A stretch of 32,000 nt of DNA from Iodobacter violaceini (lineage in GTDB: Bacteria > Pseudomonadota > Gammaproteobacteria > Burkholderiales > Chitinibacteraceae): assembly GCF_011601265.1 (NCBI RefSeq), contig NZ_JAAOLX010000017.1:1-32000 (forward strand). Direction: 5' to 3'. Within the stretch, counting starts at the first letter, position 1. Each line of letters begins with the position of its first letter. The notes beneath the pieces were generated by a model that saw only the letters and a program-made list of their open reading frames with translations, was not told where the DNA came from and made no database searches. Both the position numbers and the translations under genes were made by a program. Of this stretch, positions 659 through 30,916 are shown piece by piece.

Positions 659-689
659 TGCCTTCTCTGCGGATCAAAAGAACACTTAA

Positions 690-4273: not shown

Positions 4274-4744
4274 TTATTTGCCGATCTCAACACGTACAGC
4301 GTGCTCTGCGTCTTCGGTATTAAAGCGACGGCTTAATTTCTTTTTAGAGATGCCTTGCTTAACCAGGAATTTCTCTACATTCACAGCGCGAGCCAAAGCG
4401 GCGGACTTCGCGTTACCAATGTCTTTCTTGTAGCAATAGCCACGCAGGGTAATTGCTTTGGCTTCTTTTAATTGTGGCAGCAGGCTCATCAGTTGCAGCT
4501 CGTGCTCTGGAGTCAGCTTGGCAGACATTTTGTCAAACTTAAGAAAGGATGGGTCAACAACGGCCTTCTGGGTAGCCGCTGCTGCTGTTTCTGCAGCTTT
4601 TGTAACTGTCGATGTTGTTTCTACTGGTGCATGCTTCCATGAAGTAGAAGGCGTCGCACTCGGTGTTGCTGGATTTTCTGCACATCCGGTCACACTGGCA
4701 GCAATCACAAGTAATGCTGCACAAACAAATCCTGAACGTTTCAT
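4274..4744 (-). CDS. Lipoprotein with divergent OmpA_C-like (peptidoglycan-binding) domain
   Basis: The track ORF 4274-4855 was trimmed to ATG 4744, giving MKRSGFVCAALLVIAASVTGC (signal peptide plus lipobox). A Pro/Thr/Ala-rich linker follows. The C-terminus FDKMSAKLTPEHELQLMSLLPQLKEAKAITLRGYCYKKDIGNAKSAALARAVNVEKFLVKQGISKKKL follows the OmpA-like pattern (F..sa.L......L..l...l.....i.i.Gh.D......LS..RA..V...L...Gi). Confidence 0.6.
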   Translation of the reverse strand: MKRSGFVCAALLVIAASVTGCAENPATPSATPSTSWKHAPVETTSTVTKAAETAAAATQKAVVDPSFLKFDKMSAKLTPEHELQLMSLLPQLKEAKAITLRGYCYKKDIGNAKSAALARAVNVEKFLVKQGISKKKLSRRFNTEDAEHAVRVEIGK

Positions 4745-4784
4745 TGTTAAATCCCTTTTTTTTGAAACAACTAATCTGCTTTGT

Positions 4785-4817
4785 AAGTTGCTGGACTGAG
4801 CATCAGTCCAGCAACTT
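4785..4817 (-). terminator. Perfect 14-15 bp stem-loop just downstream of hcp (possible attenuator/processing hairpin; no clear U-tract)
   Basis: aagttgctggactga-gca-tcagtccagcaactt, located 60 nt after the hcp stop. There is no T-run on either side, so this is not a textbook intrinsic terminator. Confidence 0.35.
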
Positions 4818-4878
4818 GCCAACAGCAGATCAGTTTGCTGCTTATCGCTTATCACCCGAATGGTGATATAAAAACTAT

Positions 4879-12326: not shown

Positions 12327-13184
12327 TTACTTATTTCGCAACATGGCGGCCAGAGAGCCCGCCTTTTCGATATGCCCATAGTCTTTAAATGACCAAACTC
12401 CGCCCCACGTCAGCCCCGCAGCAACGGCTTCTTCCCCCAAAGCCTGATAGGCAGCAAATGCCCATGGATCACGCTCTGAAATAATAATTTTTCCATCTTT
12501 CATCGGCGCAAGATCAACCGCCAAACCGTATTGGTGCTTGCTCTGCCCGCCTTTTGCCTTAGTCACCACATTCGCCTGCGAGATCAGATCATCCTGGCGC
12601 TCCGGGCTTCGGTAGCCTTCAAGCAGCGCCAAGGGATAACCCCGCTCCGTCATTTTTTTCATAATCTGTAAAACCGTCTGCACAAACTGCGGATCAAGCT
12701 GGCTCCAGTCCCGGTTGGCTGTAGCTAAACCAGGACGCGCAGCTGCAGCTGCAGCACTGATAAATACTTCCGGAGGCAATGCGGGTGGCGGCTCAAGCCT
12801 GGCTTCTGTAAACGTGCCTTGTATATGAGCAACCTGGCTATATTCCTGGGGCAAGAATGGTGCAATAACATGCCGGGAATTGAAATGCAGCGTTATACCG
12901 ACAACAGCTAAAACCAGAATCAGACTGGCTAATGGCAATAGCGTTAATTTCGCTTTTTTATGTAATGAAAATCTACTTAATAACGATACTTTCTGCTTTG
13001 GTTTATCGGGTAAAATACTTACAATATCTTTTCTCTTCTTTTTTGTTGCATCAGAGCCACCTGCGGGTTTTACCTTATTTTCAGTCTGAACAGTGCTTAC
13101 GCTGGTCCCACGAACAAAAAATCGCCAGCCAACCCATGCCAAAGCCAAAAATATTACTATTAAAATCATGATGATAGCAAACAA
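12327..13184 (-). CDS. Membrane-anchored peptidase M15 (VanY/Peptidase_M15_4-like) peptidoglycan hydrolase, TagX-like
   Basis: The N-terminal TM (ILIVIFLALAWVGWRFF) is followed by a second hydrophobic helix. The C-terminal domain contains GYRSPERQ...SKHQYGLAVDL...GLTWGGVWSFKDYGHIE, matching the Zn-binding S.H..G.A.D ... wGG.W...D..H motif set of M15 LD/DD-peptidases. The start is TTG 13184 or ATG 13169. Confidence 0.7.
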   Translation of the reverse strand: MFAIIMILIVIFLALAWVGWRFFVRGTSVSTVQTENKVKPAGGSDATKKKRKDIVSILPDKPKQKVSLLSRFSLHKKAKLTLLPLASLILVLAVVGITLHFNSRHVIAPFLPQEYSQVAHIQGTFTEARLEPPPALPPEVFISAAAAAARPGLATANRDWSQLDPQFVQTVLQIMKKMTERGYPLALLEGYRSPERQDDLISQANVVTKAKGGQSKHQYGLAVDLAPMKDGKIIISERDPWAFAAYQALGEEAVAAGLTWGGVWSFKDYGHIEKAGSLAAMLRNK

Positions 13185-16929: not shown

Positions 16930-19900
16930 ATGGACATGAGCCAGCTTCTCGCCTCTTTTGCCGCAGCCTTTAATCAGGATAATCGCCTTATCAGCCTGCA
17001 ACTTGGCGACGGGGCGGCGTGGGGTGAGCAGCTGTTGCCGCAGCAGGTCAGTGGCAGCGAGGGGATGAATCAGGCTTACCGCTATCAGATTGATTGCCTT
17101 TCCCCCGATGGCAGCTTAGAGCTTAAATCCTTACTGGGCCTGCCCATTGTTTTATCTGTGGCCGATGCCAATGGCAGCGAGATTGAGCGCTGTGGTGTGA
17201 TATCCCAAGCGCAGTTGCTTGGCTCTGACGGGGGCTTTGCAAAGTACGCGCTAACGGCAGAGCCGCCGTTTGCTTTACTTCGCTACCGCCGCACTTCCCG
17301 CGTGTTCCAGGATTTATCCGTGCCGGATATCGTGAAGCAGGTACTGGCCGAGCATCAGGCTAAAAACCCCGTATTTGCAGCGGTGCAAACGCTGGATTTC
17401 AAATTATCCGGCACACACGGCCCGCGCTCTTATTGCCTGCAATACCGCGAGTCGGATTACGATTTCTTAGTGAGGCTGATGCAAGAGGAAGGCTTAGCGT
17501 GGCGCTTTGCTCATCTGCCGGGTGACAATCCCCAAGTGCAGCTCGTTGTCTTTGACGATGCCTTTGCCGTACCCGAGGCGCAAGACAGCCAGGTGCGCTT
17601 TCACCGCGCGGATGCCACGGAAGAATCTGATGCCCTTACCGAGTGGAACAGCCAGCGTCAGGTAGGCAGCAGCTCGGTATCGCTTGCCAGCTTTAATTAC
17701 AAAGCCGCCAACACCAGCCACACCGCCGATCATAGCGCTGTGGATCAGGGTGATGGCGGGCAGCAAATTCAATCCAGCTTTGAAGATTACGACGCCCAGA
17801 CGCACTATTACGCCAGCGATGCTGAAGGGCTAAGCCATTACGCTAACTTGCGTCAGCAGGCCTTGGATGGGCAAAAGAAAACGTTTACTGGCTCTGGCAC
17901 TTTGCGCAGCCTGCAAGCGGGGCAATGGTTCAGATTAGAAGACCACCCCGCACACGAATGGGATGCGGCCGAGCAGCGCGAATTCGCCATTACCCGGCTT
18001 AAATTCACCGCGCAGAATAATCTGCCGGTGGATCTGACCCAGCAACTACTGCAAGTCTCCCCCAGCCTGCTGGCCGCAAGCGCAGCTGACACCAAGCCCT
18101 ACCAGGCCGATTTCACCGCCCAAAGACGCGGCCAGCCGATCACCCCCGCCTTTGCCCATGAGCCGCTGAGTAAACCCAAAAGCTTTGGCGTACAAACCGC
18201 CACCGTGGTTGGCCCCGCCGGCTCAGAAGTGCATACCGACGAGCAAGGCCGGATTAAGGTGCAGTTCCACTGGCAGCGTGCCGCAGAGCACCCGGAGTTT
18301 GGCGCAAATCTGGATGACAAATCATCCTGCTGGATCCGCGTTTCTATGCCGAGTGCAGGCGCAGGCTTTGGCCACCAGTTTATTCCGCGCATCGGCCAGG
18401 AAGTTTTAGTCGACTTTATCGAAGGCGATATCGACCGCCCCATCGTTACCGCCGTGGTCTATAACGGCAGCCACCCGGTGCCGACATTCAGCGGCGCAGG
18501 CGCTTTACCCGCCAACAAAACATTATCCGGCATCAAGACCAAAGAGCATGAAGGTGGCCAATACGGCGAGCTGCTGTTTGACGATACCAAAGGCGAAGTT
18601 CGTACCAAATTATCCAGCGAGCATGGTAAAACTCAGCTCAATATGGGCTACCTGATCCACCCGCGCACGGATGGAAAAGGCGAACCACGCGGCGAAGGCT
18701 TTGAGCTGCGCACCGACAAACAAGGTGCCATTCGCGCCAGCGGCTTACTCATCAGCACCGAAGCCAAAGGCGGTGCATCCGGCAAACAGCTGGACCGCAG
18801 CCCAGCCCAAAGCCAGCTGGAATCCGCTTTAGACACCGCCAAAAACCTCGGCGAATACGCCACCAAACAACTCGCCGATAGCATAGAAACTGGCGAAGAT
18901 GATCAAACCGTCAAACCCGACAACAGCCCCGGCGACAAAGCCAGCCACGGCCATCTTTACCACCACGTGCACGCCAGCAAAAGCTTTGAAGCGGGTAGCA
19001 ACACGGATAAAGACGGCAAAACAAAATCTAAAGAGCAGGCTGGCCAGCAAAAAATCATCCTGCTGCACGGCGAGGACGGCGTAGCCATCACCACCCCGCA
19101 AAGCCAGACCCTCAGCGCAGGCAGCAACCTGGATCAGGTCGCCCAGCGCGACACCAACCAAAGCACCGGCCGCCGCTGGATTCACAATGTAGGCCAACAC
19201 ATCAGCCTGTTTACCGGCGGCATCAAAGACAAAATCACCATGAAGCTGATCGCCGCCAAAGGCCAGCTGCAAATGCAGGCGCAAAGCGACGACATCGAAA
19301 TCACCGGTGACAAAAACGTCAAACTCACCGCAATCAAAGGCAAGGGCCTCTTCAACGCCAAACAAGAAATCCTGCTCACCGCCGGCGGTGCTTATATCCG
19401 CATCAAAGGCGGCAAGATCGAGCTGCATGCACCGGGGAAAGTGAGCATTAAGGGCGGGAGCCATGATTGGAGCGGGCCGAAGAGCCAAAGCGTGCCTATG
19501 CCAACATTTAAAGGTAAAGATGGCCTTGGACAGTTAGAACTATTCCATCATTACCAAAATGCTGAAGCCATTAAAGGTGGCCAATATATTGTGACCGACT
19601 TAAAAGGTCAGGTTCATAAGGGCATGCTGGATGATAAAGGCTATGCCGTGATTGCAGGCTTGCCGATGGGTGCAGTCAGCGCTCAGTTTTTGAGTGACCC
19701 ACGGCAGACAAAAGCCCCCACAGGCACTTTTGAAACACCACTGCTAAAAGATGTTCCAAGCAAAATAGATACGGATGCCATTGCTAAACAAGCTTCTGCA
19801 CAATTAAGCAGTTTGCTGCCTGATGTGGCCAAAGCGCAGGGAATGGCAAGCACGCTATCTTCGCTTGACCCTGCTCAGGCAATGGCTGCGGCAAAGCAGG

Positions 19901-20265
19901 CTGCAGCAGGCCAAATAATGAGTCACGTTCCCCAAGGCATAGGCTCAGCTATTGGCAGTGCTCAAATGGCTAATACATTTGCATCAATGAACCCTCAGCA
20001 GGCAATGGATGCTGCTAAACAAGCGGCAGCTGGCCAGGCGATGAACTACCTGCCTAAAGAGGCGAGTTCTGCGGTTGGCAGTGCTCAAGGGATAGCAGGT
20101 TCACTATCCAACCCTGGCCAGGCTATGGATGCGGCAAAACAAACCGCTTCAAGCCAGGTAATGAGCCACGTGCCAAAGGAAATCAGCGCCGCTGCCGGGC
20201 AAGCCAATGCTTCTGCTCAACAAGCCCAACAAGTTAAACAAATGCTCGCTTCGCTCAAGAAGTAA
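16930..20265 (+). CDS. vgrG: VgrG spike protein (VgrG2) with ~250-aa C-terminal extension
   Basis: 1111 aa. The first ~855 aa are collinear with VgrG1 (same gp27/gp5 motifs: GRIKVQFHWQR, SCWIRVSMPSAGAGFGHQFIPRIGQEVLVDFIEGDIDRPIVTAVVYNG). An additional beta-rich segment and tandem repeats follow. Confidence 0.95.
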   Translation: MDMSQLLASFAAAFNQDNRLISLQLGDGAAWGEQLLPQQVSGSEGMNQAYRYQIDCLSPDGSLELKSLLGLPIVLSVADANGSEIERCGVISQAQLLGSDGGFAKYALTAEPPFALLRYRRTSRVFQDLSVPDIVKQVLAEHQAKNPVFAAVQTLDFKLSGTHGPRSYCLQYRESDYDFLVRLMQEEGLAWRFAHLPGDNPQVQLVVFDDAFAVPEAQDSQVRFHRADATEESDALTEWNSQRQVGSSSVSLASFNYKAANTSHTADHSAVDQGDGGQQIQSSFEDYDAQTHYYASDAEGLSHYANLRQQALDGQKKTFTGSGTLRSLQAGQWFRLEDHPAHEWDAAEQREFAITRLKFTAQNNLPVDLTQQLLQVSPSLLAASAADTKPYQADFTAQRRGQPITPAFAHEPLSKPKSFGVQTATVVGPAGSEVHTDEQGRIKVQFHWQRAAEHPEFGANLDDKSSCWIRVSMPSAGAGFGHQFIPRIGQEVLVDFIEGDIDRPIVTAVVYNGSHPVPTFSGAGALPANKTLSGIKTKEHEGGQYGELLFDDTKGEVRTKLSSEHGKTQLNMGYLIHPRTDGKGEPRGEGFELRTDKQGAIRASGLLISTEAKGGASGKQLDRSPAQSQLESALDTAKNLGEYATKQLADSIETGEDDQTVKPDNSPGDKASHGHLYHHVHASKSFEAGSNTDKDGKTKSKEQAGQQKIILLHGEDGVAITTPQSQTLSAGSNLDQVAQRDTNQSTGRRWIHNVGQHISLFTGGIKDKITMKLIAAKGQLQMQAQSDDIEITGDKNVKLTAIKGKGLFNAKQEILLTAGGAYIRIKGGKIELHAPGKVSIKGGSHDWSGPKSQSVPMPTFKGKDGLGQLELFHHYQNAEAIKGGQYIVTDLKGQVHKGMLDDKGYAVIAGLPMGAVSAQFLSDPRQTKAPTGTFETPLLKDVPSKIDTDAIAKQASAQLSSLLPDVAKAQGMASTLSSLDPAQAMAAAKQAAAGQIMSHVPQGIGSAIGSAQMANTFASMNPQQAMDAAKQAAAGQAMNYLPKEASSAVGSAQGIAGSLSNPGQAMDAAKQTASSQVMSHVPKEISAAAGQANASAQQAQQVKQMLASLKK
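19783..20262 (+). repeat. Four tandem 36-41-aa Ala/Gln-rich repeats at the VgrG2 C-terminus
   Basis: The units are AKQASAQLSSLLPDVAKAQGMASTLSSLDPAQAMAA, AKQAAAGQIMSHVPQGIGSAIGSAQMANTFASMNPQQAMDA and AKQAAAGQAMNYLPKEASSAVGSAQGIAGSLSNPGQAMDA. The last unit is AKQTASSQVMSHVPKEISAAAGQANASAQQAQQVKQMLASLKK. Confidence 0.85.
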
Positions 20266-20337: not shown

Positions 20338-23300
20338 ATGAGCGAAACAAGACAAGTTGCACATGCGCCCTATGGTAAAGAAACAGTTGCGGATACCCAG
20401 TCTGCCATAGGCAGTTTTGATACCTGGCTAAAGAAAGTTTCTGACAACCATGTTTCGCTTGATGACTTACAAACAGTCGCCAGCGCCCTGCCTGTGGTCG
20501 GTAATCTCATTGCTGCAGGAGATATGCTCGTCAATCTTTACGATATTTCGCAAAAGAAAGAGGGGGGGGATTTTGGAGACTGGATGGGGGTGGGCATTAA
20601 TGGCATAGGCTTGATCCCCGCTCCGGGTACGGCGGCACTGCGTATATCAATGCGCCCGGTACTTGGCAGCGTAAGACAAGCTTTAATTCGCGGCGGAAAA
20701 ACAGTAGGTCCCGCCTTGGTCGACGTTATTGTCAGCCATATTCTGGCCAGCGAAGCATTAGCCCAAAAAGCGGAAGACGCCGTTACAAAGATGCTGAATG
20801 TGATTTCACCCATGATGAAAGAAGTCGCCGACTTCGTTTCTAAAGTGATAGAGCAATTCACAACATTTTTAAAACAACTCATCAACGGCACATTAGGTAA
20901 ATACCGTGTTCCTGCGGGTAAAGCACCCAGCAAAGGGGAGTTTGTTCGCAATCCCGCAATTCGTTTAGGCAGCTTTTTTGGTGAAGCGTGCCAGTTTTAT
21001 CGTAAGGCGGTAGCTACTGTTGCATCTAAAGCAGCTTCTGCCCTGCTAAGCGATAAAGTAAAACAAACACTGACTGATTTACTTAACCACCTGAATAATT
21101 CAATTAAGCCGCAAATAGTTGGCAAGATCACCGCCCTGGCCGATGCAAAGGCCAAACAAAGCCTGGTATCCTTACTGACTCTGCTACTTGCCGCAATTAC
21201 AAAGGGCAAAAAGAAAGCAGCTGCTGGTGCTGTTGCCGTTGGCAAAACCACAAAAGTGGTAGCGAAACGTGCCCAGCAAGTGATTGAGCAAGTCAGCTCG
21301 CAAATCAAAGCCAAACTTAGCCCCAATGGCTGCAAAGAATGTAAAACCAAAGGCAAATCACGCAGTACAAAATCAATTGGCTATGCACTGGGTGATGAGG
21401 TTTTTAGCCACACCGATTTTAGCCTTAATGGTGTAATGCCCTTAGTTTGGCAACGTACTTATAACTCCAGGCTGGCCGCTTATGATCAGGGCGAGCTGGG
21501 CGCACGCTGGACATCCCCGCTATCTACCCGCTTTGATTTAATCAACGCAGAATCAGGCCCCATCTTGCGCCACTTTGATGCGGATGGCCGTAGCCTGGAT
21601 TACCCAGCACTTGCAGTGGGCGAGCACCATCAAGACCGCACTGAAGGCCTGATGCTTAGCCGTTTGGATGAAAACCTGCTGACCATTACCCGTGGCCATG
21701 AATTGCTGGAGGTGTACGAGCGCTACGAATCCCGCTTTATGCTGCGCATGCTGAAAGACCGTGCGGGCAATACGCTGGCGCTGAGTTACGATGCAGCGGG
21801 TTTATTGCAGCAAATCGATTTAAGCAGTGGCAGCAGCGCAAAATTTGAGCGTAATGCAGCGGGAAAAATCAGCCGTATTAGCACCCCCCCCAGCAAAGAG
21901 CTTCCTGCTGGGCGCGTGCTTGCTGAATACAGCTATAACGAGCATGGTGATTTAATCAGCGCCAAAGATGAGCACGGCAATCAGCGCGATTATCAATATA
22001 AAAACCACCTGATTACCCGCTACACCGATCGCACTGGCCGCGGGGTTAATCTGGAATGGGATGGCAGCAGCGCTACATCCAAAGCTATTCGTGAGTTTGC
22101 AGATGATGGCAGTAATGAGATCCGCCTAAGCTGGCACGACGACATCCGCCTCACCACCGTTCGCAATGCCCATGGCGATGAAACACTCTATTACTTTGAT
22201 GCGCTGGGCTACACCTATCGCATTATTTATCCCGATAACAGCGAAGAATGGCTGTTTCGCGATGATTATAAAAACCTAATCAAACACGTTTATCCCGATG
22301 GCAGCTCAGATCGTTATGAATACGATGCCAACGATAATCTGCTGCTGCATATTCGCCCCGACGATAGCACCGTGCAGATGGCTTACGATGATAAAGACCA
22401 GCTGATCCGCATTACTGATCCGCTGGGCAATATCTGGCTGCGTGAATACGACGACAAAGGCAATCTGCTTAAAGAAATCGATCCTAAGCAATACGCCACC
22501 AGCTATAGCTACAACCCGCAGGGCCTGCCTATCGCAATTAAAGACGCCAAAGGCGGCACAAAAAAACTGGCCTATTTACCCAACGGCCAGATTGCCAGCT
22601 TTACCGATTGCTCTGGCTCCTGCACCGAATGGCATTACGATGCCAATGGCCGCTTGTTAGAAACCCAGGATGCAGCAGGCAACCTCACCCAATATCGCTA
22701 TGGCAGCGATGGGCGTCTGGAGGCTGCTAAACAGGCGGATGGCACCGAAGCCAAATTGCAATTTGATGCCGAAGGCCGTTTGCTGTCGCACACCGATGCG
22801 CTGGGCCGCAGCACCCGCTATGGCTACGATAAAGCAGGCCGGATTCATTCCCGAATCGATGCGATGGGCCAGGAGCTGGCCTACCGCTACGACAAACTGG
22901 GCAGACTGACCGCACTGCAAAATGAAAACAGCGCCCAATATCGCTTTAGCTACGATCCTGTTGGCCGCTTAATCGAAGAAAACAGCTTTGATGGCAAAGC
23001 CACCCGCTATCATTATGCCGAAGCCAGCGGCCAGCTCTTAGAAGTGAACGAAGCAGGCCAGCTTACCCAGCTTAACTACGATGCCGCAGGCCGCCTTGCA
23101 CAGCGTAAAACGGGCAGCAGCAAAGAATCATTCCGCTACGATCCGGCTGGCCGCCTTGCCATCGCTAAAAACCGCTTTAGCCAGGTGGTGTTTAACTTTG
23201 ATGAAGTGGGCGATTTAACGCGTGAAGAGCACCATTACCAGCTCTTTGGCCAAAGCCAAACCCATATCTGGCAACACGAATACGACGAGCTGGGTAACCG

Positions 23301-24804
23301 CATCGCCAGCATTCGCCCCGATGGCCAACGCACCGACTGGCTGGTTTACGGCAGTGGCCATGTGCACGGCATGCTGTGGAATAAGCAAGAAATCACCAGC
23401 TTTGAGCGCGATAAACTACACCGCGAAACCGGCCGCAAACTCGCCAACCAGCTGCAAGCCCAAACCCAATACGACCCAATGGGCCGCATGCTGCAGCAAA
23501 CGCTCAGCGGAAAAACCAGCAGCAACCGCAGCTATCAATACGATCCGGTAGGGCAACTGCTGGGCATTAAAGACAGCCGTAAGGGCGAAACCCAATACCG
23601 CTACGATCCGGTAGGCAGGCTGCTTGCTGCCAACACACCAAAACATCAGGAAACCTTTGCCTTTGACCCCGCCAGCAATCTGCTCGACAGCGCAGGCAAA
23701 GCAGAAAACACCCTACCCAGCCAAACACCACGTATTCTGGATAACCTGCTGAAGCAATACGCAGGCACCCACTTTAAATACGACGCACGCGGCAACCTCA
23801 CCGAAAAACAACGCGGTGAACAGATCACCAAACTAAGCTGGGACGGCTTTAACCGCCTGAGTGAAGTGCAAACAGCCCAAGGCGTAACGCAATACTATTA
23901 CGACGCCTTTGGCCGCCGCATCGGCAAAGAAAACGCCCAAGGCCAAACCGCATTCATCTGGGACGGCGACGTGATCGCCCTGGAAAAAACCGCAAACCAA
24001 ACCCGCCATTACCTGTTCGAGCCCAATAGCTTTATACCGCTGGCGCAGATCGTCTCCGCCAACGACAGCGAGCAAGAACACACCGCCTACTACCACGTAG
24101 ACCACCTCGGCACACCGCAAACACTGAGCGATGAAAACGGCGAAATCGCTTGGAGTGCAGAGTACAAAGCGTGGGGTGAAGCGCAGGTCGTCATTAGTGA
24201 AGCCGCAAAAGAAGCCGGAATCAATAACCCAATACGCTTCCAAGGCCAATACGCCGACGAAGAAAGTGGATTGCATTACAATAGACACCGCTATTACGAC
24301 CCGGAGATTGGGCGGTTTATTAGTAGTGATCCGATTAAATTAGCGGGCGGCAGAAATTTACACCAATATGCTCCGAATCCTATTGGGTGGATTGATCCGT
24401 TTGGATTGGTGCACGAAACAGCACCTGGATATCACGTCTATGGATTATATGAGCCGGGTAAAAGTCCTGACCGAGGTGACTCTCCTTATTACGTTGGCAT
24501 AACGGATGATTTGGATAGGCGTAATATAGAACATGGTAAAAGTGGGCGCTTAGCAGGAGGAACCATGGAACCAATAATGAGAGATGTAGATTATGGTACT
24601 GCCCGTGGTGTTGAGCAGGCTAATATTGAGCATCATGGCACCAAGACAGGGACTATTGGACAAGATTTAAGCACAGCAACAACTTATGACGAAAGAGGAA
24701 ACAAAGTTGCCTCATTTGACCATAAAAATTCAACGCGTTGCCCCAAAAGGCAGCAGCACTTTGAAAATGCATATAACAATGAAATAAAACGCTTAAACCG
24801 TTAA
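20338..24804 (+). CDS. rhs: Rhs-family T6SS polymorphic toxin (no PAAR), GIY-YIG-like nuclease C-terminal tip
   Basis: 1488 aa. The Rhs shell starts near aa 346 (SIGYALGDEVFSHTDFSLNGVMPLVWQRTYNS) and has many YD repeats (YxYDxxGRL). The conserved core end is [39 protein letters not shown]...NPIGWIDPFGL, followed by a 131-aa variable tip. Confidence 0.95.
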   Translation: MSETRQVAHAPYGKETVADTQSAIGSFDTWLKKVSDNHVSLDDLQTVASALPVVGNLIAAGDMLVNLYDISQKKEGGDFGDWMGVGINGIGLIPAPGTAALRISMRPVLGSVRQALIRGGKTVGPALVDVIVSHILASEALAQKAEDAVTKMLNVISPMMKEVADFVSKVIEQFTTFLKQLINGTLGKYRVPAGKAPSKGEFVRNPAIRLGSFFGEACQFYRKAVATVASKAASALLSDKVKQTLTDLLNHLNNSIKPQIVGKITALADAKAKQSLVSLLTLLLAAITKGKKKAAAGAVAVGKTTKVVAKRAQQVIEQVSSQIKAKLSPNGCKECKTKGKSRSTKSIGYALGDEVFSHTDFSLNGVMPLVWQRTYNSRLAAYDQGELGARWTSPLSTRFDLINAESGPILRHFDADGRSLDYPALAVGEHHQDRTEGLMLSRLDENLLTITRGHELLEVYERYESRFMLRMLKDRAGNTLALSYDAAGLLQQIDLSSGSSAKFERNAAGKISRISTPPSKELPAGRVLAEYSYNEHGDLISAKDEHGNQRDYQYKNHLITRYTDRTGRGVNLEWDGSSATSKAIREFADDGSNEIRLSWHDDIRLTTVRNAHGDETLYYFDALGYTYRIIYPDNSEEWLFRDDYKNLIKHVYPDGSSDRYEYDANDNLLLHIRPDDSTVQMAYDDKDQLIRITDPLGNIWLREYDDKGNLLKEIDPKQYATSYSYNPQGLPIAIKDAKGGTKKLAYLPNGQIASFTDCSGSCTEWHYDANGRLLETQDAAGNLTQYRYGSDGRLEAAKQADGTEAKLQFDAEGRLLSHTDALGRSTRYGYDKAGRIHSRIDAMGQELAYRYDKLGRLTALQNENSAQYRFSYDPVGRLIEENSFDGKATRYHYAEASGQLLEVNEAGQLTQLNYDAAGRLAQRKTGSSKESFRYDPAGRLAIAKNRFSQVVFNFDEVGDLTREEHHYQLFGQSQTHIWQHEYDELGNRIASIRPDGQRTDWLVYGSGHVHGMLWNKQEITSFERDKLHRETGRKLANQLQAQTQYDPMGRMLQQTLSGKTSSNRSYQYDPVGQLLGIKDSRKGETQYRYDPVGRLLAANTPKHQETFAFDPASNLLDSAGKAENTLPSQTPRILDNLLKQYAGTHFKYDARGNLTEKQRGEQITKLSWDGFNRLSEVQTAQGVTQYYYDAFGRRIGKENAQGQTAFIWDGDVIALEKTANQTRHYLFEPNSFIPLAQIVSANDSEQEHTAYYHVDHLGTPQTLSDENGEIAWSAEYKAWGEAQVVISEAAKEAGINNPIRFQGQYADEESGLHYNRHRYYDPEIGRFISSDPIKLAGGRNLHQYAPNPIGWIDPFGLVHETAPGYHVYGLYEPGKSPDRGDSPYYVGITDDLDRRNIEHGKSGRLAGGTMEPIMRDVDYGTARGVEQANIEHHGTKTGTIGQDLSTATTYDERGNKVASFDHKNSTRCPKRQQHFENAYNNEIKRLNR
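24409..24804 (+). other. Rhs-CT toxin domain, GIY-YIG (URI) nuclease-like
   Basis: It directly follows DPFGL. PGYHVYGLYEPGKSPDRGDSPYYVGITDDLDRRNIEH gives GIY (VYGLY), YIG (YVGIT) and the conserved Arg. The later ARGVEQANIEHHG supplies the conserved Glu. GC content drops from here onward. Confidence 0.7.
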
Positions 24805-24823: not shown

Positions 24824-25510
24824 ATGGGCTGGTGGAATATACCCGATCAAAAAGATGCCGTTATTGGTGATGCGGTGCTGGATTCAATACGACATTTTTT
24901 AAAAGAATTTAGCCATGAATACATCGAAGATTTAGGCAGAAAACCTACCCTGCTTGAGCTTGAATACGCCTTATCACTGGCATTTAAAGTAAATGTAGAT
25001 GATGATATTGCCAGTGGTATGGAAGAGCTTGAAATTAAGCAAGTCGTATTAAAAACAGCCAAACGACCAAAGCGGTTTAAACCCGTACCGGGGGATTTAT
25101 TTGCCTTCCGCTATGATGAACAACGTTATGGTTTTGGTAGGCTGATCTCAAAATTAAGCATGGGAATGGTCGCGGAAATCTATGATTATTTTTCTGCCCA
25201 GCCTATATTCGACCCAAATTATACAGATAAATGGCTGATTAGCCCCGTAGTACTTAACCCATATGGTTTATTTGAATGTCGAAACGAAGGTGAATGGCTA
25301 ATTATAGGTAAAACGCCTAACTATGTTATCCCTAACAAATTCAATGATGTATTTTTTGTTACTGGTACCCCTGGCAAGCTCCAAGCAGTACGAGTGAACA
25401 ACTCTGATTTTGATATTAGTTTAGAGGAGGCCACTGGCCATAGAAGATATACCTATAGCTCTGATATTCAGATTAAAGAGCTTATTGCCGAAGCATTAAA
25501 AAACAAGTAA
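24824..25510 (+). CDS. Cognate immunity protein candidate (copy a), C-terminal half Imm26-like
   Basis: 228 aa, starting 19 nt after the rhs stop, with an AAGGA SD 7 nt upstream. PGDLFAFRYDEQRYGFGRLIS...MVAEIYDYF...GEWLIIGKTP resembles the Imm26 pattern as I remember it. The N-terminal MGWWNIP...D...GD..LD is reminiscent of DUF4259. Confidence 0.65.
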   Translation: MGWWNIPDQKDAVIGDAVLDSIRHFLKEFSHEYIEDLGRKPTLLELEYALSLAFKVNVDDDIASGMEELEIKQVVLKTAKRPKRFKPVPGDLFAFRYDEQRYGFGRLISKLSMGMVAEIYDYFSAQPIFDPNYTDKWLISPVVLNPYGLFECRNEGEWLIIGKTPNYVIPNKFNDVFFVTGTPGKLQAVRVNNSDFDISLEEATGHRRYTYSSDIQIKELIAEALKNK

Positions 25511-25516
25511 ACAAAC

Positions 25517-25547
25517 AGGGGGCAATAATATTGCTCCCTTTTTTTAT
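25517..25547 (+). terminator. Rho-independent terminator after immunity gene copy a
   Basis: agggggcaat-aat-attgctccct (10 bp including one G-U pair) is followed by tttttttat. Confidence 0.65.
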
Positions 25548-25565
25548 AGAATGGCTCGGGAGAAT

Positions 25566-25633
25566 AAAATGGGCGGGTGAAGTATACCCGATAAAAAAGA
25601 TGCCATTATTGGTAGTACGGCGCTGGATTCAAT
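25566..25633 (+). pseudogene. Degenerate 5' remnant of the immunity gene (third copy)
   Basis: aaaatgggcgggtgaagtatacccgataaaaaagatgccattattggtagtacggcgctggattcaat aligns with the first ~65 nt of 24824-25510. It reads M-G-G-stop. Confidence 0.7.
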
Positions 25634-26140
25634 GAAAAATAATTTAATAAAAAAATTAAAAAACACGGTTGGATTTTTGAGCATACTGATAAAAATAGTA
25701 AAGAAAAGGATAATAAAGAAATTGAAATAATTAAAAAAACATGCATCAACCTCTACAAATGGTGCTCTTTTTTTGATGCGTTATATAGCAGTGCAGATGA
25801 TGAATGGTTTTTATCTTTAAATGATTTTAGAAATAATTCCGACTCTTCTTTTTCATGGAATAAATTTGAGAAGATATGTATTGAATCTTGTTCTAGTCCA
25901 AAAGAAGAAATAGAGGTAAAAATTTTTTGGAGTGGTCATTTACCTATTTTTATGTCAACAAAAAGTGGATATCAATACTGGGCAATAAAAACAAGTGGTG
26001 AGAATATTGGGGCTATATATTACGGTAGAGAACCGGAGTTCGAAGAGGTAACCAAAATCGCAGAAAATTTCGACGATTTGATAAAAAAAATTAATTTATC
26101 TCTTGATACAAACAATAAGATACTTGGCATTGATTTTTAA
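25632..26140 (+). pseudogene. SUKH/SMI1-KNR4-like orphan immunity gene, frameshifted in an A7 run
   Basis: The reading frame is open from 25643 to 26140 (166 codons; the track only lists the last 62 aa). It contains ...SFSWNKFEKICIESCSSPKEEIEVKIFWSGHLPIFMSTKSGYQYWAIKTSGENIGAIYYGREPEFEEVTKIAENFDDLIKKI, like SMI1/KNR4-family proteins as I remember them (FW..hlP...s..g.Y.ylai......G.v..geePefEe...vA.sF..fl). The only plausible start, ATG 25632 (MKNNLIKK), is one frame off, and the A7 run lies at 25649-25655. GC is very low. Confidence 0.5.
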
Positions 26141-26205
26141 TGATTGTTTTTTTTATAAAATACAATCATTAAAATATAACATATGTGTTTTTTGAGGAGG
26201 CGGCA

Positions 26206-26892
26206 ATGGGCTGGTGGAATATACCCGATCAAAAGGATGCCGTTATTGGTGATGCGGTACTGGATTCAATACGGCATTTTTTAAAAGAATTTAGCCATGA
26301 ATATACCGAGGATTTAGGCAGAAAACCAACTCTGCTTGAACTTGAATATGCATTATCACTGGCATTTAAAGTAAATGTAGATGATGAAATTGCCAGTGGC
26401 ATGGAAGAGCTTGAAATTAAGCAAGTCGTATTAAAAACGGCTAAACGACCAAAGCGGTTTAAACCTCTGCCGGGTGATTTATTTGCTTTTCGCTATGACG
26501 AAAAACATTATGGTTTTGGCCGGTTGATCTCAAATGTCAGTATGGGAATGGTTGCGGAAATTTATGATTATTTTTCTGGCTCCCCTATATTTGATCCAAA
26601 TCGCTCAGAAAAATGGTTAGTTGATCCCGTATTACTTGATTCATTTGGCTTGTTTGAACGCAGGTCGGAAGGTGAATGGTTAATTATAGGAAAAACACCT
26701 GATTACGTTGCTCCTGAAAAATTCAATGACGTGTTTTTTGTTACTGGCACCCCTGGCAAGTTCCAAGCTGTGCGAGTTGATAATTCTAGATTTGATATTA
26801 GCCAAGAGGCAGCCATTGGCCATAGAAGATATTCAAGCTGCGGCGACACTCAAATAAAAGACCTTATTTCCGAAGCTTTAAAAAACAAATGA
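26206..26892 (+). CDS. Immunity protein paralog (copy b), diverged in the C-terminal half
   Basis: ATG 26206 is preceded by GAGGAGG; the track start 26185 is a GTG. The first ~100 aa are almost identical to copy a (3 differences by eye), and the remaining ~128 aa are roughly 75% identical. Confidence 0.7.
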   Translation: MGWWNIPDQKDAVIGDAVLDSIRHFLKEFSHEYTEDLGRKPTLLELEYALSLAFKVNVDDEIASGMEELEIKQVVLKTAKRPKRFKPLPGDLFAFRYDEKHYGFGRLISNVSMGMVAEIYDYFSGSPIFDPNRSEKWLVDPVLLDSFGLFERRSEGEWLIIGKTPDYVAPEKFNDVFFVTGTPGKFQAVRVDNSRFDISQEAAIGHRRYSSCGDTQIKDLISEALKNK

Positions 26893-26928
26893 ACGAACAG
26901 GGGGCAATATTATTGCTCCCTGTTCGTT
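26892..26928 (+). terminator. 17-bp hairpin after immunity copy b (homologous to 25517-25547 but longer stem, poor T-run)
   Basis: aacgaacagggggcaat-att-attgctccctgttcgtt. Confidence 0.5.
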
Positions 26929-26946
26929 TATAGAAGGATTTTGGAA

Positions 26947-27751
26947 ATTCATCTGGGACGGCGACGTGATCGCCCTGGAAAAAACCGCCGAACACACCCA
27001 CCACTACCTGTTCGAGCCCAACAGCTTTGTGCCGCTGGCGCAAATCGTCTCCGCCAACGACAGCGAACAAGAACACACCGCCTACTACCACGTAGACCAC
27101 CTCGGCACGCCGCAAACACTCAGCGATGAAAACGGCGAAATTGCGTGGAGCGCTGAATATAAAGCGTGGGGAGAAGCAAAAACCATTATCAGCGAAGCGG
27201 CTAAAACAGCAGGTATCAACAACCAGCTACGTTTCCAAGGCCAATACACCGATGAAGAAAGCGGCTTGCATTACAATCGATACCGCTATTACGACCCGGA
27301 GATTGGGCGGTTTATTAGTAGTAATCCGATTAAATTAGCGGGCGGAAGTAATTTACACCAATTTGCGCCGAATCCGATAAGTTGGCTTGATCCACTGTGG
27401 CTGGCACGTATTAAAAATGCAGTAGAAGGTGATCGCCGCCATCAAGAATTTAATGAAATAATAAAGGCTGAAAATACACATGCAAAAATTCAAAGTGAAT
27501 GCTATCTACGTGACAAAAATGGAAAGTCTGTTAAAGATCCCATTACAGGTGAACGCCGGCGTGTAGATACAGCTGTAATTGAAAATGGTAAGGCGAAAAC
27601 TTATGAGGTGACAAGTACTAGTGCAGATAAACAAGAGCAGCTCGCTAAAGAAGGTCGAATTATGGGAAATGGTGGAAATTACATCCGTGACCGTAGTACT
27701 GGCGAGTTAATTCCAACAAGTGGTCTTTCTGAAATTGTTAGGTTGCCATAA
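26947..27751 (+). CDS. Orphan Rhs C-terminal cassette 1 (5'-truncated, no ATG/SD), restriction-endonuclease-fold-like toxin tip
   Basis: Nucleotides 26947-27403 are >90% identical by eye to rhs 23952-24408 (FIWDGDVIALEKTA...[12 protein letters not shown]). The frame is open from 26933 but has only a GTG at 26966. The junction motif is DPLWL instead of DPFGL. The tip (27404-27751) contains RRVDTAVIENGKAKTYEVTS...Q..K, a PD-(D/E)xK-like arrangement. Confidence 0.8.
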
Positions 27752-28090
27752 ATGAATGAAAATTATTTAGTTTTAATGTCAATCAATGAATTTGTATCTG
27801 CCTATAAAACAACCAATGCTAAAGGGGAGATAATTGATGACGTCGAATCTCAAGAGATGGTGCGAAGATCAATAACAGCATTGATTAATTTTTTTGCTGA
27901 AAACAACCTGCTTAATGACAAAAAAATTACAGAAACAAACAGAGAACTTAGGAGAGATGACTTTACTCCTGAAGGTCTTGAATTATTTATAAAAAAGGGT
28001 GGGGCTTGGTTAAAATCTAAAGCATCAAAAAAAGATCCGCCAAATATAAAACTATTGGAAAAAGCGCTTTTTTATATAAAGAAAAATTGA
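27752..28090 (+). CDS. Candidate immunity protein for orphan cassette 1
   Basis: A 112-aa ORF whose ATG abuts the toxin stop (taaATG). It is low in GC, small and acidic/helical in character. No family was recognised. Confidence 0.55.
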   Translation: MNENYLVLMSINEFVSAYKTTNAKGEIIDDVESQEMVRRSITALINFFAENNLLNDKKITETNRELRRDDFTPEGLELFIKKGGAWLKSKASKKDPPNIKLLEKALFYIKKN

Positions 28091-28108
28091 GTTAGTTAAA
28101 GCAAGAGA

Positions 28109-28158
28109 GTATGTTCATATTGATATACGAACATGCTAAATTATTATTTTTATATTTA
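28109..28158 (+). terminator. Imperfect hairpin plus T-rich tail after orphan-1 immunity gene
   Basis: gtatgttc(a)tat...ata(c)gaacatgc is followed by taaattattatttttatattt. Confidence 0.3.
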
Positions 28159-28436
28159 TCCTGTTTTTAATTTGTATGTTTGGCGAGCCATATATTGTCA
28201 ATATTTCGGTGGATTATATAAAAACTTAAACACTTAATTACGTTTTGATCGTTTTTCTAATAAATCAGTAAAACCACTCCGTCGCAGCATATAAAACTTA
28301 CGGGCCATTAAAAATTAACTCGCCCCCCAAAAAAACGATTGTACAGAAATCAAAATCTACTGAAGTACAATAAATGCATCATGACTTCACTATACACAAA
28401 CTACTAATCCAACTTTTACACCTTAGGAGTAAAGGA

Positions 28437-29159
28437 ATGATGGATTTAAAAAAATTAATAGCACAGCATTTTCCCGATGACATAGTAGAGGTTAAAGGAA
28501 TTTTAAAATTCACTTTGCACATGCCGAACGAAAAAATAGTTCATTACCTAAATATTGGATGCACGGATAAAAATATTAATAATTTAGCTATTTGTGTTGA
28601 TCATGATGATGATGAGTTTGCAATCGATTTATTAAAAAATGATGTTAAGCCATTGGAAGCACCAATTACTATAATTAATACTGAATTTGAAGACAAAAAA
28701 TTTGACTCCATTTTAATGGCTAGTGGCTTATATCACCGTCAACTAAGAGGGATAGTTAACGAATATAGGAATAATTTTTTTCTTTGCTTACCTATTTTTA
28801 AATCAGAATTTTTTGGGAATGAGACGGAAAAAGATTTTTTAGATACATGTGCTAAATTCACACCCGTTTATAATTGGAATCGAGAGAAAAACCCAAAATC
28901 TGTTGTTGCATTTAGCAACCCTAAAACAGGGGGAGGCACCATAAAAAAAGGCATTGTATTAGCTTTTCCTACAATTAAGAGGGAAATAAATAATATGGAC
29001 GGTGTTGAAGATGGAACAATGTTAATTACAAACTACAAAAATGAGAAGATTGATATACGATCAAGCACTAAAAATTTTAGTTTGAAAACAAACAAGACAG
29101 ATTTAACACTAGGTAATGACGAGTTAGTCAACTATATTTGGGATTTTATATCTATATAA
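28437..29159 (+). CDS. Hypothetical protein (~240 aa), no recognisable domain; possible orphan immunity gene
   Basis: The track ORF 28374-29159 was trimmed to ATG 28437, which is preceded by taggagtaaagga. GC is very low (~28% by eye). No motifs were recognised. Confidence 0.45.
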   Translation: MMDLKKLIAQHFPDDIVEVKGILKFTLHMPNEKIVHYLNIGCTDKNINNLAICVDHDDDEFAIDLLKNDVKPLEAPITIINTEFEDKKFDSILMASGLYHRQLRGIVNEYRNNFFLCLPIFKSEFFGNETEKDFLDTCAKFTPVYNWNREKNPKSVVAFSNPKTGGGTIKKGIVLAFPTIKREINNMDGVEDGTMLITNYKNEKIDIRSSTKNFSLKTNKTDLTLGNDELVNYIWDFISI

Positions 29160-29254
29160 TTTTAAAAAAATATACTACAGAAAGGGTATTTTATGCTACA
29201 TAAAACGTGCTCTTGTTGTTGAGTTAACAAGAAAATCCGGCGGCAGATCTTGCA

Positions 29255-29375
29255 TTAACATATCTGACGATTTTCATCTCGTTTTATGATTCGGCAAACC
29301 GTTGAGTAATGCACGCAAAAATACATCGCGATTTGCTGCATGCTGGGAATAACTGGGGTCAGAGTAAAATTAATT
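29255..29375 (-). pseudogene. Possible remnant of a resolvase/transposase-type C-terminal helix-turn-helix
   Basis: The last ~40 aa of track ORF 29255-29791(-) read TLTPVIPSMQQIAMYFCVHYSTVCRIIKRDENRQIC. This resembles the HTH_7-type pattern (IA..fgVs.sTvyRil.). The rest of that ORF is merely antisense to the orphan rhs arm, so no catalytic domain remains. Confidence 0.25.
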
Positions 29376-29428
29376 CTGCTTTCTTTTGCTCTAAGAGGAT
29401 TTAATTCTTTTCCGACTCCTATTATTTT

Positions 29429-30490
29429 AAGCAATACGCCGAAACCCATTACAAATACGACGCCCGCAGCAATCTGATTGAAAAGCAACAAGGCGAGCAG
29501 ATCACTAAATTCAGCTGGGATGGCTTCAACCGCCTGAGCAAAATCAGCAGCCAAGCGGGCGAAACCAAATACTTCTACGACGTATTCGGCCGCCGCATCG
29601 GCAAAGAAAACGCTCAGGGTAAGACAGAATTTATTTGGGACGGCGACGTCATCGCCCTGGAAAAAACCGCTGAACAAACACGTCATTACCTGTTTGAACC
29701 CAACAGCTTTATACCGCTGGCGCAAATCGTAGAAAAAGGCGAAAGCAGCCACGCCGCCTACTACCACGTGGATCAACTTGGTACGCCGCAAACGCTCAGT
29801 GACGAAAACGGCGAAATCGCATGGAGCGCGGAGTAGAAGGCTTGGGGCGAAGCGCAGGTCGTCATTAGTGAAGCGGCAAAGACAGCCGGTATCAATAACC
29901 CACTACGTTTCCAAGGCCAATACGCCGATGAAGAAAGTGGATTGCATTACAATCGATACCGCTATTACGACCCGGAGATTGGGCGGTTTATTAGTAGTGA
30001 TCCGATTGGTCTATTGGGGGGATTTAATACCCATGCTTATGCGCCAAATCCGGTTGAGTGGGTGGATTCATTAGGCTTAGCTAAAGCTAATTATAGATAT
30101 AAGCATGGCCCAAATGGTGAGCTACGTAGTGCTACAGCGAAAATAACTCAAGCAGATATCGGAAAAGGAACTTGTACTAATTGCTCTTCAAGAGCAAAAG
30201 CACGGGCTCTTGGTGAAGGATGCGACGATGCTGGGCATGCCATTGGTAAGCAACTTGGCGGAGATGGAGGCGTAAATGGTACTTTTCCTCAAAACCCTAA
30301 TATCAATCGTGGTGTTTTCAGAGATTTTGAAAATGATACTGCACGCAGAGTTCAAGCTGGTGACAATGTAATTTTACGTGTCACACCAGTTTATAACGCA
30401 GGCTCTACAAGGCCACATGAAGTTATTTATCAACGTCGAGTCAATGGCGTAACTGAACGTCATGTTTTCAATAACCCAGGATGCCCTTAG
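29429..30490 (+). pseudogene. Orphan Rhs C-terminal cassette 2, interrupted by in-frame TAG; Endonuclease_NS_2 / His-Me finger-like toxin tip
   Basis: Nucleotides 29429-30079 align with rhs 23752-24405 (KQYAETHYKYDARSNL...FIWDGDVIALEKTAEQTRHYLFEPNSFIPLAQ...). The conserved WSAEYKAWGE reads WSAE-TAG-KAWGE (TAG at 29834-29836). The junction is DSLGL. The tip (30080-30490) contains [37 protein letters not shown]...[25 protein letters not shown], like PF13930-type nucleases (D.GHli...lGG.....N..pQ...lNrg....E......G..V.v.v...Y.g...RP). Confidence 0.8.
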
Positions 30491-30499
30491 GAGATTAAA

Positions 30500-30916
30500 G
30501 TGGACAAAGAATTTATGACTGCATTTTTATCAGAAATGCTCGATTGGGAAGATTGGTTTGATAACATCAGAAAATCAGAATCCTATAAAAATGATGTAAG
30601 CAATCAATCGTCATCAAAAGCTGAAGCAAAAGAAAAAGCCAAGGCCATTATTGATAAATACTTATCAATAAAAGCCATCTCCAAAAACGGAGAGGCATTT
30701 CTCGCGGTTCTGCCGACAGCAAGGCCCCGATATTTCTCCCAAGAAATAGTCACCATAGAAGAAGATGGTAAAAAAATAAAAGTAATCACCCGAAACACCA
30801 AAAGCCCAAAAGCAAGAATAATGTATGTGTTGCTTAAAGGTGAAAGTGGCCTAAAAATAAATGAAATATACTCATCTTATGCTGATCAAGAATGGGATAA
30901 AAAGAGCAGTTTATAA
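30500..30916 (+). CDS. Candidate immunity protein for orphan cassette 2 (possibly RhsIA/NTF2-like)
   Basis: 138 aa with a GTG start at 30500. AGGAG lies 6 nt upstream and overlaps the toxin stop; an alternative ATG is at 30515. The position is the main evidence, and the family call is tentative. Confidence 0.6.
   Translation: MDKEFMTAFLSEMLDWEDWFDNIRKSESYKNDVSNQSSSKAEAKEKAKAIIDKYLSIKAISKNGEAFLAVLPTARPRYFSQEIVTIEEDGKKIKVITRNTKSPKARIMYVLLKGESGLKINEIYSSYADQEWDKKSSL

Follow-up and report, generated by a model that had tools for sequence, protein, structure and literature searches.

The C-terminal extension of an Iodobacter VgrG protein, a probable docking module for a PAAR-less Rhs protein, carries a fourfold Ala/Gln-rich repeat

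How is an Rhs protein that lacks a PAAR domain held on the spike of a type VI secretion system (T6SS), and what does the long tail of the VgrG protein encoded next to it contribute? These questions are raised by a stretch of 32,000 nt of Iodobacter violaceini DNA (assembly GCF_011601265.1, contig NZ_JAAOLX010000017.1, positions 1 to 32,000, forward strand), which was analyzed over its full length and is called the window in the following. It contains a T6SS cluster encoding TssBC, Hcp, TssM, TagF, TssJ, TssK, TssL and TssE together with two VgrG proteins, VgrG1 and VgrG2, the latter of which bears a C-terminal extension. Our data indicate that this extension is probably the cargo-specificity module of a VgrG15/VgrG3-type spike, by which the PAAR-less Rhs is held on the T6SS tip. 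As a class, extensions in which a beta domain and helices load a PAAR-less Rhs are already known; they were published in 2024 and made explicit for the closest relatives in 2026. The novelty that an earlier note on this DNA had implied for the extension was therefore not upheld, VgrG15 and VgrG3 being published cases. The only distinctive trait of the VgrG2 extension is its fourfold repeat. By exact-sequence look-up the DNA was assigned to Iodobacter sp. HSC-16F04 / I. violaceini. VgrG2, its parts and its paralogue are located as follows:

16930-20265, + strand: VgrG2 (WP_166830315.1), open reading frame (ORF) of 1111 aa
16930-19500, + strand: spike core of VgrG2, aa 1-857, with gp27/gp5-like head, OB domain, T6SS_Vgr and DUF2345 beta-helix
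19525-19689, + strand: five-stranded immunoglobulin (Ig)-like/transthyretin (TTR)-like beta domain, aa 866-920 (AlphaFold2 (AF2), hhalign, Foldseek, BLASTP)
19690-19782, + strand: linker, aa 921-951, ...AQFLSDPRQTKAPTGTFETPLLKDVPSKIDTDAI (AF2, alignments)
19783-19890, + strand: repeat R1, aa 952-987, AKQASAQLSSLLPDVAKAQGMASTLSSLDPAQAMAA (predicted local distance difference test score (pLDDT) 70-83)
19891-20013, + strand: repeat R2, aa 988-1028, predicted helix-break-helix (pLDDT 42-73)
20014-20133, + strand: repeat R3, aa 1029-1068 (alignment, AF2, hidden Markov model (HMM) of the unit)
20134-20262, + strand: repeat R4 and terminal helix, aa 1069-1111, ending in QQAQQVKQMLASLKK (pLDDT 67-85 in the last 24 residues)
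1577-4234, - strand: VgrG1, paralogue with the same core and a short tail, ORF of 885 aa

The core of VgrG2 was recognized by Pfam (Phage_GPD, 2e-79; Phage_base_V; T6SS_Vgr, 9e-35; DUF2345, 1e-45) and by NCBIfam (TIGR03361, 1e-120), the Pfam match to DUF2345 ending at aa 851. By alignment, VgrG1 is 83.7% identical to VgrG2 across aa 1-860 of the latter. Identity drops to 60% at aa 801-850 and is gone past a common 'SGP', 25 residues after which VgrG1 stops with the C-terminus ...NSVCKECLLLALKSGSPFVV. VgrG2 runs on for approximately 250 aa beyond the point of divergence. These values agree with the earlier note, which had described both proteins as collinear up to about nt 19500 (aa 857), and the beta-segment sequence quoted there is present in the VgrG2 translation. 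The extension is encoded directly 3' of the DUF2345 beta-helix and differs among otherwise nearly identical Iodobacter VgrG paralogues: in P0048 (960 aa) and P0051 (931 aa) an almost unchanged core bears two other short beta-rich tails. More than 90% of the core is common to the Iodobacter paralogues, and at least four alternative tails occur on one spike scaffold. With VgrG1 as comparator, this shows that the tail is a swappable specificity module.

The extension (aa 858-1111) did not match any Pfam or NCBIfam family, and a phmmer search with it against PDB sequences gave nothing significant (best E=1.3), nor did this search reveal a sequence link to the TTR domain of VgrG1 from enteroaggregative Escherichia coli (EAEC). 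Its structure was predicted by AF2 using an alignment with 21 homologous tails. The model disclosed a beta domain of five strands at extension residues 9-63 with high confidence (pLDDT 94-98), and the matches retrieved by Foldseek from the PDB were confined to this domain. The best ones were CnaB/prealbumin-like domains (TIE protein, BcpA, SdrD, SpyCatcher) with a probability of ~1.0 and a root-mean-square deviation (rmsd) of 1.4-2.6 across ~60 residues; because the domain is small, all E-values were >0.01. The EAEC VgrG1-Tle1 spike (6SJL_A) appeared at rank 21 (probability 0.99, 58 columns) as a weak match (E=0.079, rmsd 3.6). In agreement with Foldseek, CnaB-type and tandem 'prealbumin-like' repeats were found as weak sequence matches in a search of representative proteins. 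Structural and sequence matches together make 'TTR-like', the term previously applied to this beta sandwich, a fair description at the level of the fold.

The gene following vgrG2 encodes the Rhs protein, whose parts are given here:

20338-24804, + strand: Rhs, 1488 aa (WP_166830317.1), next gene after vgrG2
20338-21372, + strand: N-terminal clade/FIX domain, aa 1-345, alpha-helical, without PAAR (phmmer, profile)
21202-21270, + strand: Rhs aa 289-311 (KGKKKAAAGAVAVGKTTKVVAKR), candidate contact strand, aligned with Tse15 loop 288-304
21373-21417, + strand: clade autocleavage motif SIGYALGDEVFSHTD at aa 346, S346 being the predicted P1' residue and E354 the predicted nucleophile
21373-24408, + strand: Rhs cocoon with DUF6531, YD repeats and RHS core (RHS_repeat 1e-84, DUF6531, RHS, TIGR03696)
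24409-24801, + strand: Rhs toxin tip, aa 1358-1488, possibly GIY-YIG-like (Pfam, sub-threshold, E=0.026)

In this protein Pfam found RHS and DUF6531 and no PAAR, and the gap of 72 nt between vgrG2 and rhs contains no gene, as had been noticed earlier (a PAAR-less Rhs with no adaptor in between). The first 345 residues had no Pfam match. By phmmer, however, Rhs aa 17-399 matched aa 30-387 of Tse15 (8UXT_A) with E=3e-11, and a profile of eight clade domains, from which the cocoon was excluded, had Tse15 as its sole significant PDB match (E=7e-22 over 18-200 and 229-327). The most conserved block of the domain is aa ~27-121. Like Tse15, whose alpha-helical clade domain comprises ~335 aa and is autocleaved (PDB 8UXT/8UY4), the Rhs carries a clade autocleavage motif. 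Its sequence SIGYALGDEVFSHTD matches the Tse15 motif (S/N)Ix4G(T/A)Ex3HxD (PMC11461821) save for an Asp at the T/A position, which is also found in the C. violaceum and Burkholderia homologues. A second cleavage motif of the aspartyl-protease type (PxxxxDPxGL), PIGWIDPFGL at aa 1348-1357, precedes the variable toxin.

Tse15 is the cargo of VgrG15 of Acinetobacter baumannii, and the VgrG side of this pair turned out to be related to VgrG2 as well. By hhalign, the extension family matched Acinetobacter VgrG15-type tails over 84 columns, which comprise the beta domain and the following segment (99.6%, E=1.7e-24), and the extension in the window matched the VgrG15 orthologue of A. nosocomialis by BLASTP (3e-6). 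The latter contains GALELL at position 854 and LNLNLSADQMKSL at position 1000, corresponding to the published landmarks 853 and 999-1011 with a shift of one residue. VgrG15 is also built like VgrG2, with a core, an Ig-like domain of five strands (853-907), a linker, a helical region (933-1028) and a PAAR-less Rhs encoded downstream. The VgrG2 linker is aligned in the extension-family alignment and, by hhalign, as far as extension residue 86, and its prediction was of low confidence (pLDDT 48-56, extension residues 71-90). It corresponds to a family-conserved segment 'DPRDPW...WP' and to VgrG15 908-932, which crosses the clade domain in the published model (PMC11461821). The helices differ, those of VgrG15 being five, non-repetitive and Asn/Ser/Gln-rich, whereas the prediction for VgrG2 gave a larger number that arises from four Ala/Gln-rich repeats.

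For VgrG15 it has been demonstrated that the extension composed of the Ig-like domain and helices binds Tse15 and is needed for its delivery (Hayes et al. 2024, PMC11461821). A chimera in which VgrG15(831-1064) was grafted on VgrG16 sufficed to deliver Tse15, Tse15 pulled down native VgrG15, and the minimal Tse15-binding region in two-hybrid assays was VgrG15 976-1014 (PMC11461821). In an AlphaFold-Multimer model the Tse15 loop 288-304 joins the VgrG15 Ig-like domain as an added edge strand, and the clade domain is wrapped by the helices (PMC11461821).

The closest tail was found on a VgrG fragment of Chromobacterium sp. (P0001), whose 90% cluster includes fragments of C. violaceum. It matched the VgrG2 extension by BLASTP (3e-21) over the beta domain, the linker and the first helical unit. 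Chromobacterium belongs to the same order as Iodobacter (Neisseriales), and both genera are commonly put in one family. We assumed that the Chromobacterium fragments are of the VgrG3 type. VgrG3 of C. violaceum (CV_1432) bears the same Ig-like and helical extension (PMC13617354) and co-immunoprecipitates the FIX-domain Rhs protein RhsF (CV_1431) (PMC13324451). The island VgrG3-RhsF-RhsFI is laid out like the one in the window, namely vgrG, rhs, immunity gene, truncated rhs and immunity gene. Homology extends to the clade domains of C. violaceum and the window (E=3e-24, with 44% identity in the FIX core), and both Rhs proteins have the cleavage motif 'SIGYA(L/I)GDE' in common. Differences concern the helical tail, which in Chromobacterium is ~90 aa long with at most one weakly recognizable unit, as against ~160 aa and four copies in Iodobacter, and the toxin, which in RhsF is an ADP-ribosyltransferase, while the tip in the window is possibly GIY-YIG-like and paired with Imm26.

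Two further systems are less similar. VgrG1b of Vibrio parahaemolyticus, likewise a VgrG paralogue, has 101 additional C-terminal aa, an extension on which delivery of a FIX effector depends (Jana et al. 2019, PMC6688995), and the effector encoded downstream has an N-terminal FIX marker. This cargo, however, is a small nuclease (FIX/PoNe) and not an Rhs, the extension is necessary but not sufficient alone (PMC6688995), and the likeness to VgrG2 is one of description only. The Sci-1 VgrG1 of EAEC (6SJL) uses a small beta-sandwich after DUF2345 as cargo-docking site, as is suggested here for VgrG2, but its cargo is a phospholipase (Tle1) and no helical tail comes after its TTR domain.

The extension was searched by phmmer against 1.84 billion representative proteins (E<=1e-3). 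Nearly all of the 46 matches were C-termini of VgrG proteins or VgrG fragments, the best (2e-12) being the Chromobacterium tail; the family members that carry a name belong to Chromobacterium, Paludibacterium, Burkholderia, Variovorax, the Pseudomonas putida group and Acinetobacter. The beta domain of the relatives follows the consensus GxLELxHxYxN...YxVTDxxGxVxxGxLDxxGxAxVSGLxxGxAKVxFGxDPRDPW...WP. After it the tails are Ala/Gly/Gln/Ser-rich and highly variable in length and sequence. Genome and metagenome scans with the extension yielded no close relative, a word-indexed protein search with the extension and the Rhs N-terminus returned 8000 low-complexity candidates and none that was significant, and the same kind of search with a TTR-only profile gave three uninformative matches. 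Many otherwise unalignable tails end with a short basic C-terminus (...LKK, ...SKK, ...FKK, ...KIK), as seen in VgrG2, the VgrG15 orthologue (L009), P0080, P0012 and P0003. The last 54 residues of VgrG15 are dispensable for delivery (PMC11461821).

An orthologue of equal length, with the same Rhs downstream, is present in 'Janthinobacterium' sp. B9-8, a strain which we take as Iodobacter because its proteins cluster with Iodobacter ones at >=90% identity. This is one of seven other intact extension-bearing loci with a readable downstream gene: Iodobacter B9-8 (L001), a metagenome (L002), the P. putida group (L003), A. lanii (L004), C. violaceum (L005), A. bereziniae (L006) and Burkholderia (L007). 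In all seven the next gene encodes an Rhs with a homologous clade domain (BLASTP 1e-18 to 1e-35 against that of the window) and the cleavage motif, which, with the window included, resides at aa 346-384 in 8/8 loci. Conversely, each of 11 Acinetobacter loci found by means of the Tse15 clade sequence has a VgrG with beta domain and tail directly upstream. The extension thus adjoins a clade-domain Rhs in 18/18 intact loci, and in Acinetobacter, Pseudomonas, Burkholderia, Chromobacterium and Iodobacter alike the two partner domains are invariably encoded side by side. From the anatomy of the extension, the homology of both proteins to a characterized pair and this strict adjacency we infer that the Rhs physically binds VgrG2. 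The proposal of the earlier note that the extension is a docking platform for the Rhs is hence supported by homology and conserved gene order. It would extend a PAAR-independent route of Rhs loading, by a VgrG Ig-like and helical extension and a clade/FIX domain, to Iodobacter, and is useful for annotating VgrG tails without a Pfam model and for predicting VgrG-Rhs pairs.

Two observations on these loci may be added. In strain B9-8 (CP014222, 1-23336) the module vgrG2-rhs-imm26-imm26-rhs fragment lies away from the T6SS core and adjoins an operon resembling a cyclic oligonucleotide-based antiphage signaling system (SMODS/DncV-like, ThiF, JAB), while in the window it directly follows tssE; the module is thus mobile. 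A degraded copy in Paludibacterium denitrificans (L008, 6001-12597) consists of a 198-aa remnant of a VgrG tail and short Rhs fragments (DUF6531, YD-shell, RHS, Tox-HNH-EHHH).

The same adjacency bears on two other explanations of the extension. Evolved VgrGs with C-terminal toxin domains exist, and the extension might itself be an effector domain, for instance one whose amphipathic helices act on target membranes or the cell wall. A relative from Variovorax, P0008, indeed has an Ig-like domain followed by a HExxH region. Apart from the 18 loci, this explanation is opposed by the database searches, in which no known enzymatic domain (Pfam, NCBIfam) and no significant PDB sequence emerged, so that docking stands as the interpretation of the extension, and by the lack of an extra immunity gene between vgrG2 and rhs. 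We consider an effector function very improbable. An enzymatic 'evolved VgrG' was rejected for want of a domain match and an extra immunity gene, and a membrane-active tail because the tail has no hydrophobic segment (maximum 19-residue Kyte-Doolittle hydropathy 0.62). In Variovorax P0008 and P0102 the region after the same Ig-like domain extends over ~200 aa in place of the helical tail and has no Pfam match; it contains the HExxH motif and may be a fused metallopeptidase-like effector. It is also conceivable that the extension recruits a PAAR cap, an adaptor or another module's effector, and that the Rhs is loaded by another route. A crude motif scan did not reveal a PAAR gene in the window, and in the relative L002 a PAAR gene lies just upstream of vgrG, both of which would fit this explanation. 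Yet PAAR proteins bind the tip of the beta-helix and are not known to bind C-terminal extensions. Since, in addition, gene adjacency and the published data on VgrG15-Tse15 and VgrG3-RhsF favor the Rhs as partner, we hold such a recruitment to be extremely improbable.

On the basis of the VgrG15-Tse15 model, docking of the Rhs could proceed as follows. Past DUF2345, each VgrG2 protomer would expose the Ig/TTR-like domain, the linker and a helical region of ~160 aa made of four helix-break-helix units. The Rhs would bind to it via the alpha-helical clade/FIX domain (aa 1-345), a loop of which (aa ~297-309) would extend the edge of the Ig-like domain by a strand, as modelled for VgrG15-Tse15, and the VgrG2 helices would wrap around the clade domain. 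The candidate for the contacting strand is Rhs aa 289-311. The net charge is +3 for the tail and +21 for the clade domain. The Rhs would autocleave at S346 and after aa 1357 and then be fired with the spike, the extra repeats of VgrG2 enlarging the helical cradle.

What, then, are the repeats? Four tandem units of ~40 aa had been reported at nt 19783-20262, and this was corroborated by shuffling and self-alignment. The units start at aa 952, 988, 1029 and 1069 with periods of 36, 41 and 40 aa and are 36-43 aa long. Alignments of unit pairs gave z=7.7-12.7 over composition-preserving shuffles (0/500 shuffles as high), with R2 and R3 sharing 23 of 41 residues (z=12.7); the exception is R1-R4 with z=1.7. 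The whole-tail self-alignment scored 230 compared to 57+/-9 in shuffles (z=19.8) at an offset of 40 residues. R4 is diverged in its second half, and R1 is shorter by 5 residues. Ala accounts for 25% of the residues in the repeat region, Gln for 14% and Ser for 13%. At the DNA level the units are 51-63% identical and Tandem Repeats Finder did not report a repeat, which is thus apparent in the protein only; the duplication must be old. A recent hypervariable repeat was rejected in view of this divergence and of the equal copy number in both Iodobacter strains. According to AF2, one repeat corresponds to approximately two helices, (D/N)PxQAMDAAKQAAxGQxMSH and, after a break at V/L-P, xxxxSAxGSAQ..., with the highest confidence for the first and the last helix of the region. 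The 40-aa unit matched neither curated repeat families (TPR, Sel1, HEAT and similar) nor any Pfam family at E<=0.01.

Among 20 tails compared, the strong internal repeat is unique to VgrG2, since self-alignment of the 19 relatives did not exceed z=5.4. The HMM of the unit detected four copies in each of two Iodobacter proteins, which its construction implies, one weak copy in C. violaceum (independent E-value 0.0018) and nothing significant elsewhere, VgrG15 included. Repeats as a general property of the family were rejected on these grounds. The earlier note knew of no described VgrG with such an array; the fourfold repeat was detected only in the two Iodobacter strains, while the class of extension was already known. 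R1 is the copy nearest to the Chromobacterium VgrG3-type tails: it aligns to the Chromobacterium sp. tail KKQAMSQLSSLVGKTLPPGVA inside a high-scoring segment pair of 140 aa (BLASTP, E=3e-21). A second segment pair (E=0.001) relates the terminal helix of VgrG2 to the Chromobacterium tail end QQARDVKQLAS...LLKKIL. Because R1 and R3-R4 both map to one Chromobacterium segment and the HMM recognized one weak copy, the simplest history would be that a unit present approximately once in the ancestor shared with Chromobacterium was amplified in tandem in the Iodobacter lineage. Common to both genera are R1 and the terminal helix, and R2 and R3 would be the added copies.

The two Iodobacter orthologues also allowed a comparison of constraints. 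In aa 858-935, which hold the beta domain, they differ by 19 synonymous changes and one amino-acid change, and in the repeats by 32 synonymous and 21 amino-acid changes. Approximately 25% of the codons show synonymous differences, yet all four repeats are intact and free of indels. The array is therefore preserved, though less strictly constrained than the beta domain.

These results have to be weighed against the main one among the three rival explanations: that the Ig/TTR-like domain alone docks the Rhs, and the repeats are a flexible, largely disordered spacer or the leftover of a slippage-like duplication. Several data count against the participation of the helices and against docking as proposed above. 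The seven helices predicted over aa 948-1110 have pLDDT values of 42-85 and the overall predicted TM-score is 0.32, so that the structure prediction suggested by the earlier note was confident for the beta domain and low to moderate for the repeats. Their composition is of low complexity, amino-acid changes have arisen in them at a higher rate than in the beta domain (21 changes in 161 codons versus 1 in 78), and tails of relatives vary widely. When seven residues of the mapped helix were replaced by alanine in full-length VgrG15, Tse15 was still delivered, and the strand-addition contact is known only from the AlphaFold-Multimer model (PMC11461821). Furthermore, hhalign failed to align the helical tails of the Iodobacter group with those of the Acinetobacter group, so their likeness rests on position and predicted secondary structure; the co-immunoprecipitation of RhsF with VgrG3 maps no interacting domains (PMC13324451); and our single-sequence model of the clade domain was too poor for use (pLDDT 40).

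A mere spacer is nevertheless difficult to reconcile with the finding that VgrG15(1-912), which keeps the Ig-like domain and lacks the helices, did not deliver Tse15, and that the fragment 976-1014 by itself bound in the two-hybrid assay (PMC11461821). Some helical or low-complexity tail is retained in every intact family member, R1 and the terminal helix recur in Chromobacterium, and the number and length of the repeats are equal in both strains despite their synonymous divergence. We therefore regard the spacer as unlikely and prefer docking by the beta domain together with the helices. Most likely, the extra repeats enlarge or lengthen the helical cradle rather than bring a new activity. 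That the fourfold amplification is functional in a stricter sense, each unit or pair of units being a separate contact to the clade domain, seems to us quite unlikely. If this were true, the VgrG2 trimer would be a multivalent or extended platform that could hold the ~160-kDa Rhs farther from the spike, raise avidity or permit more than one Rhs per spike, and the number of helical repeats would be a tunable loading parameter in VgrG15-type spikes. In any case, the expanded repeats provide a naturally occurring longer version of the helical part, which could be used to probe its share in loading.

The short tail of VgrG1 has features of its own. Its sequence (NSVCKECLLLALKSGSPFVV, 1577-1640, - strand) contains a 'CKEC' motif that recurs at the end of the Rhs clade domain just ahead of the cleavage site (NGCKECKTKGKS, 21319-21350, + strand) and in PDB 8QJA, a VgrG-Rhs fusion protein of solved structure, at the point where both parts join (DCKECRGRVGGSIG). 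Possibly the tail of VgrG1 is a remnant of this junction or mimics it. VgrG1 is followed by:

690-1565: DUF4123 adaptor gene

Beyond this gene, at positions 1-690 (- strand), there are two small paralogous ORFs whose signal sequences are lipoprotein-like (…LLTSCNVT… and …SLVSCQEKQPEDTS…), and one of the two reading frames contains an in-frame stop codon; no obvious large effector was seen among the ORFs of these 690 nt. Within the T6SS cluster, an M15-family peptidoglycan peptidase (12327-13184, - strand) and an OmpA-like protein (4274-4855, - strand) are encoded, a pair that is presumably comparable to TagX/TagN of Acinetobacter T6SS clusters. A TssJ lipoprotein gene is present in the cluster of the window, which we take to be a difference from Acinetobacter.

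At the other end of the module, the main Rhs has the toxin tip YHVYGLY...YYVGITDDLDRRNIEH, which, in view of the sub-threshold GIY-YIG match, may be a nuclease paired with Imm26. The corresponding gene is:

24824-25510, + strand: candidate cognate immunity gene of the Imm26 family (Pfam 2e-6), gene order kept in B9-8

It is one of two nearly identical Imm26 genes, the other residing at 26185-26892, and opens a region (24824-30916) arranged as is typical of Rhs 'orphan tip' arrays. Here, a C-terminal Rhs fragment that is orphaned and has a degenerate DPLWL cleavage motif (26966-27751) is followed by a small ORF (27752-28090), and a second orphan tip, which contains an Endonuclea_NS_2 domain (29942-30490), by an Imm-NTF2 gene (30500-30916).

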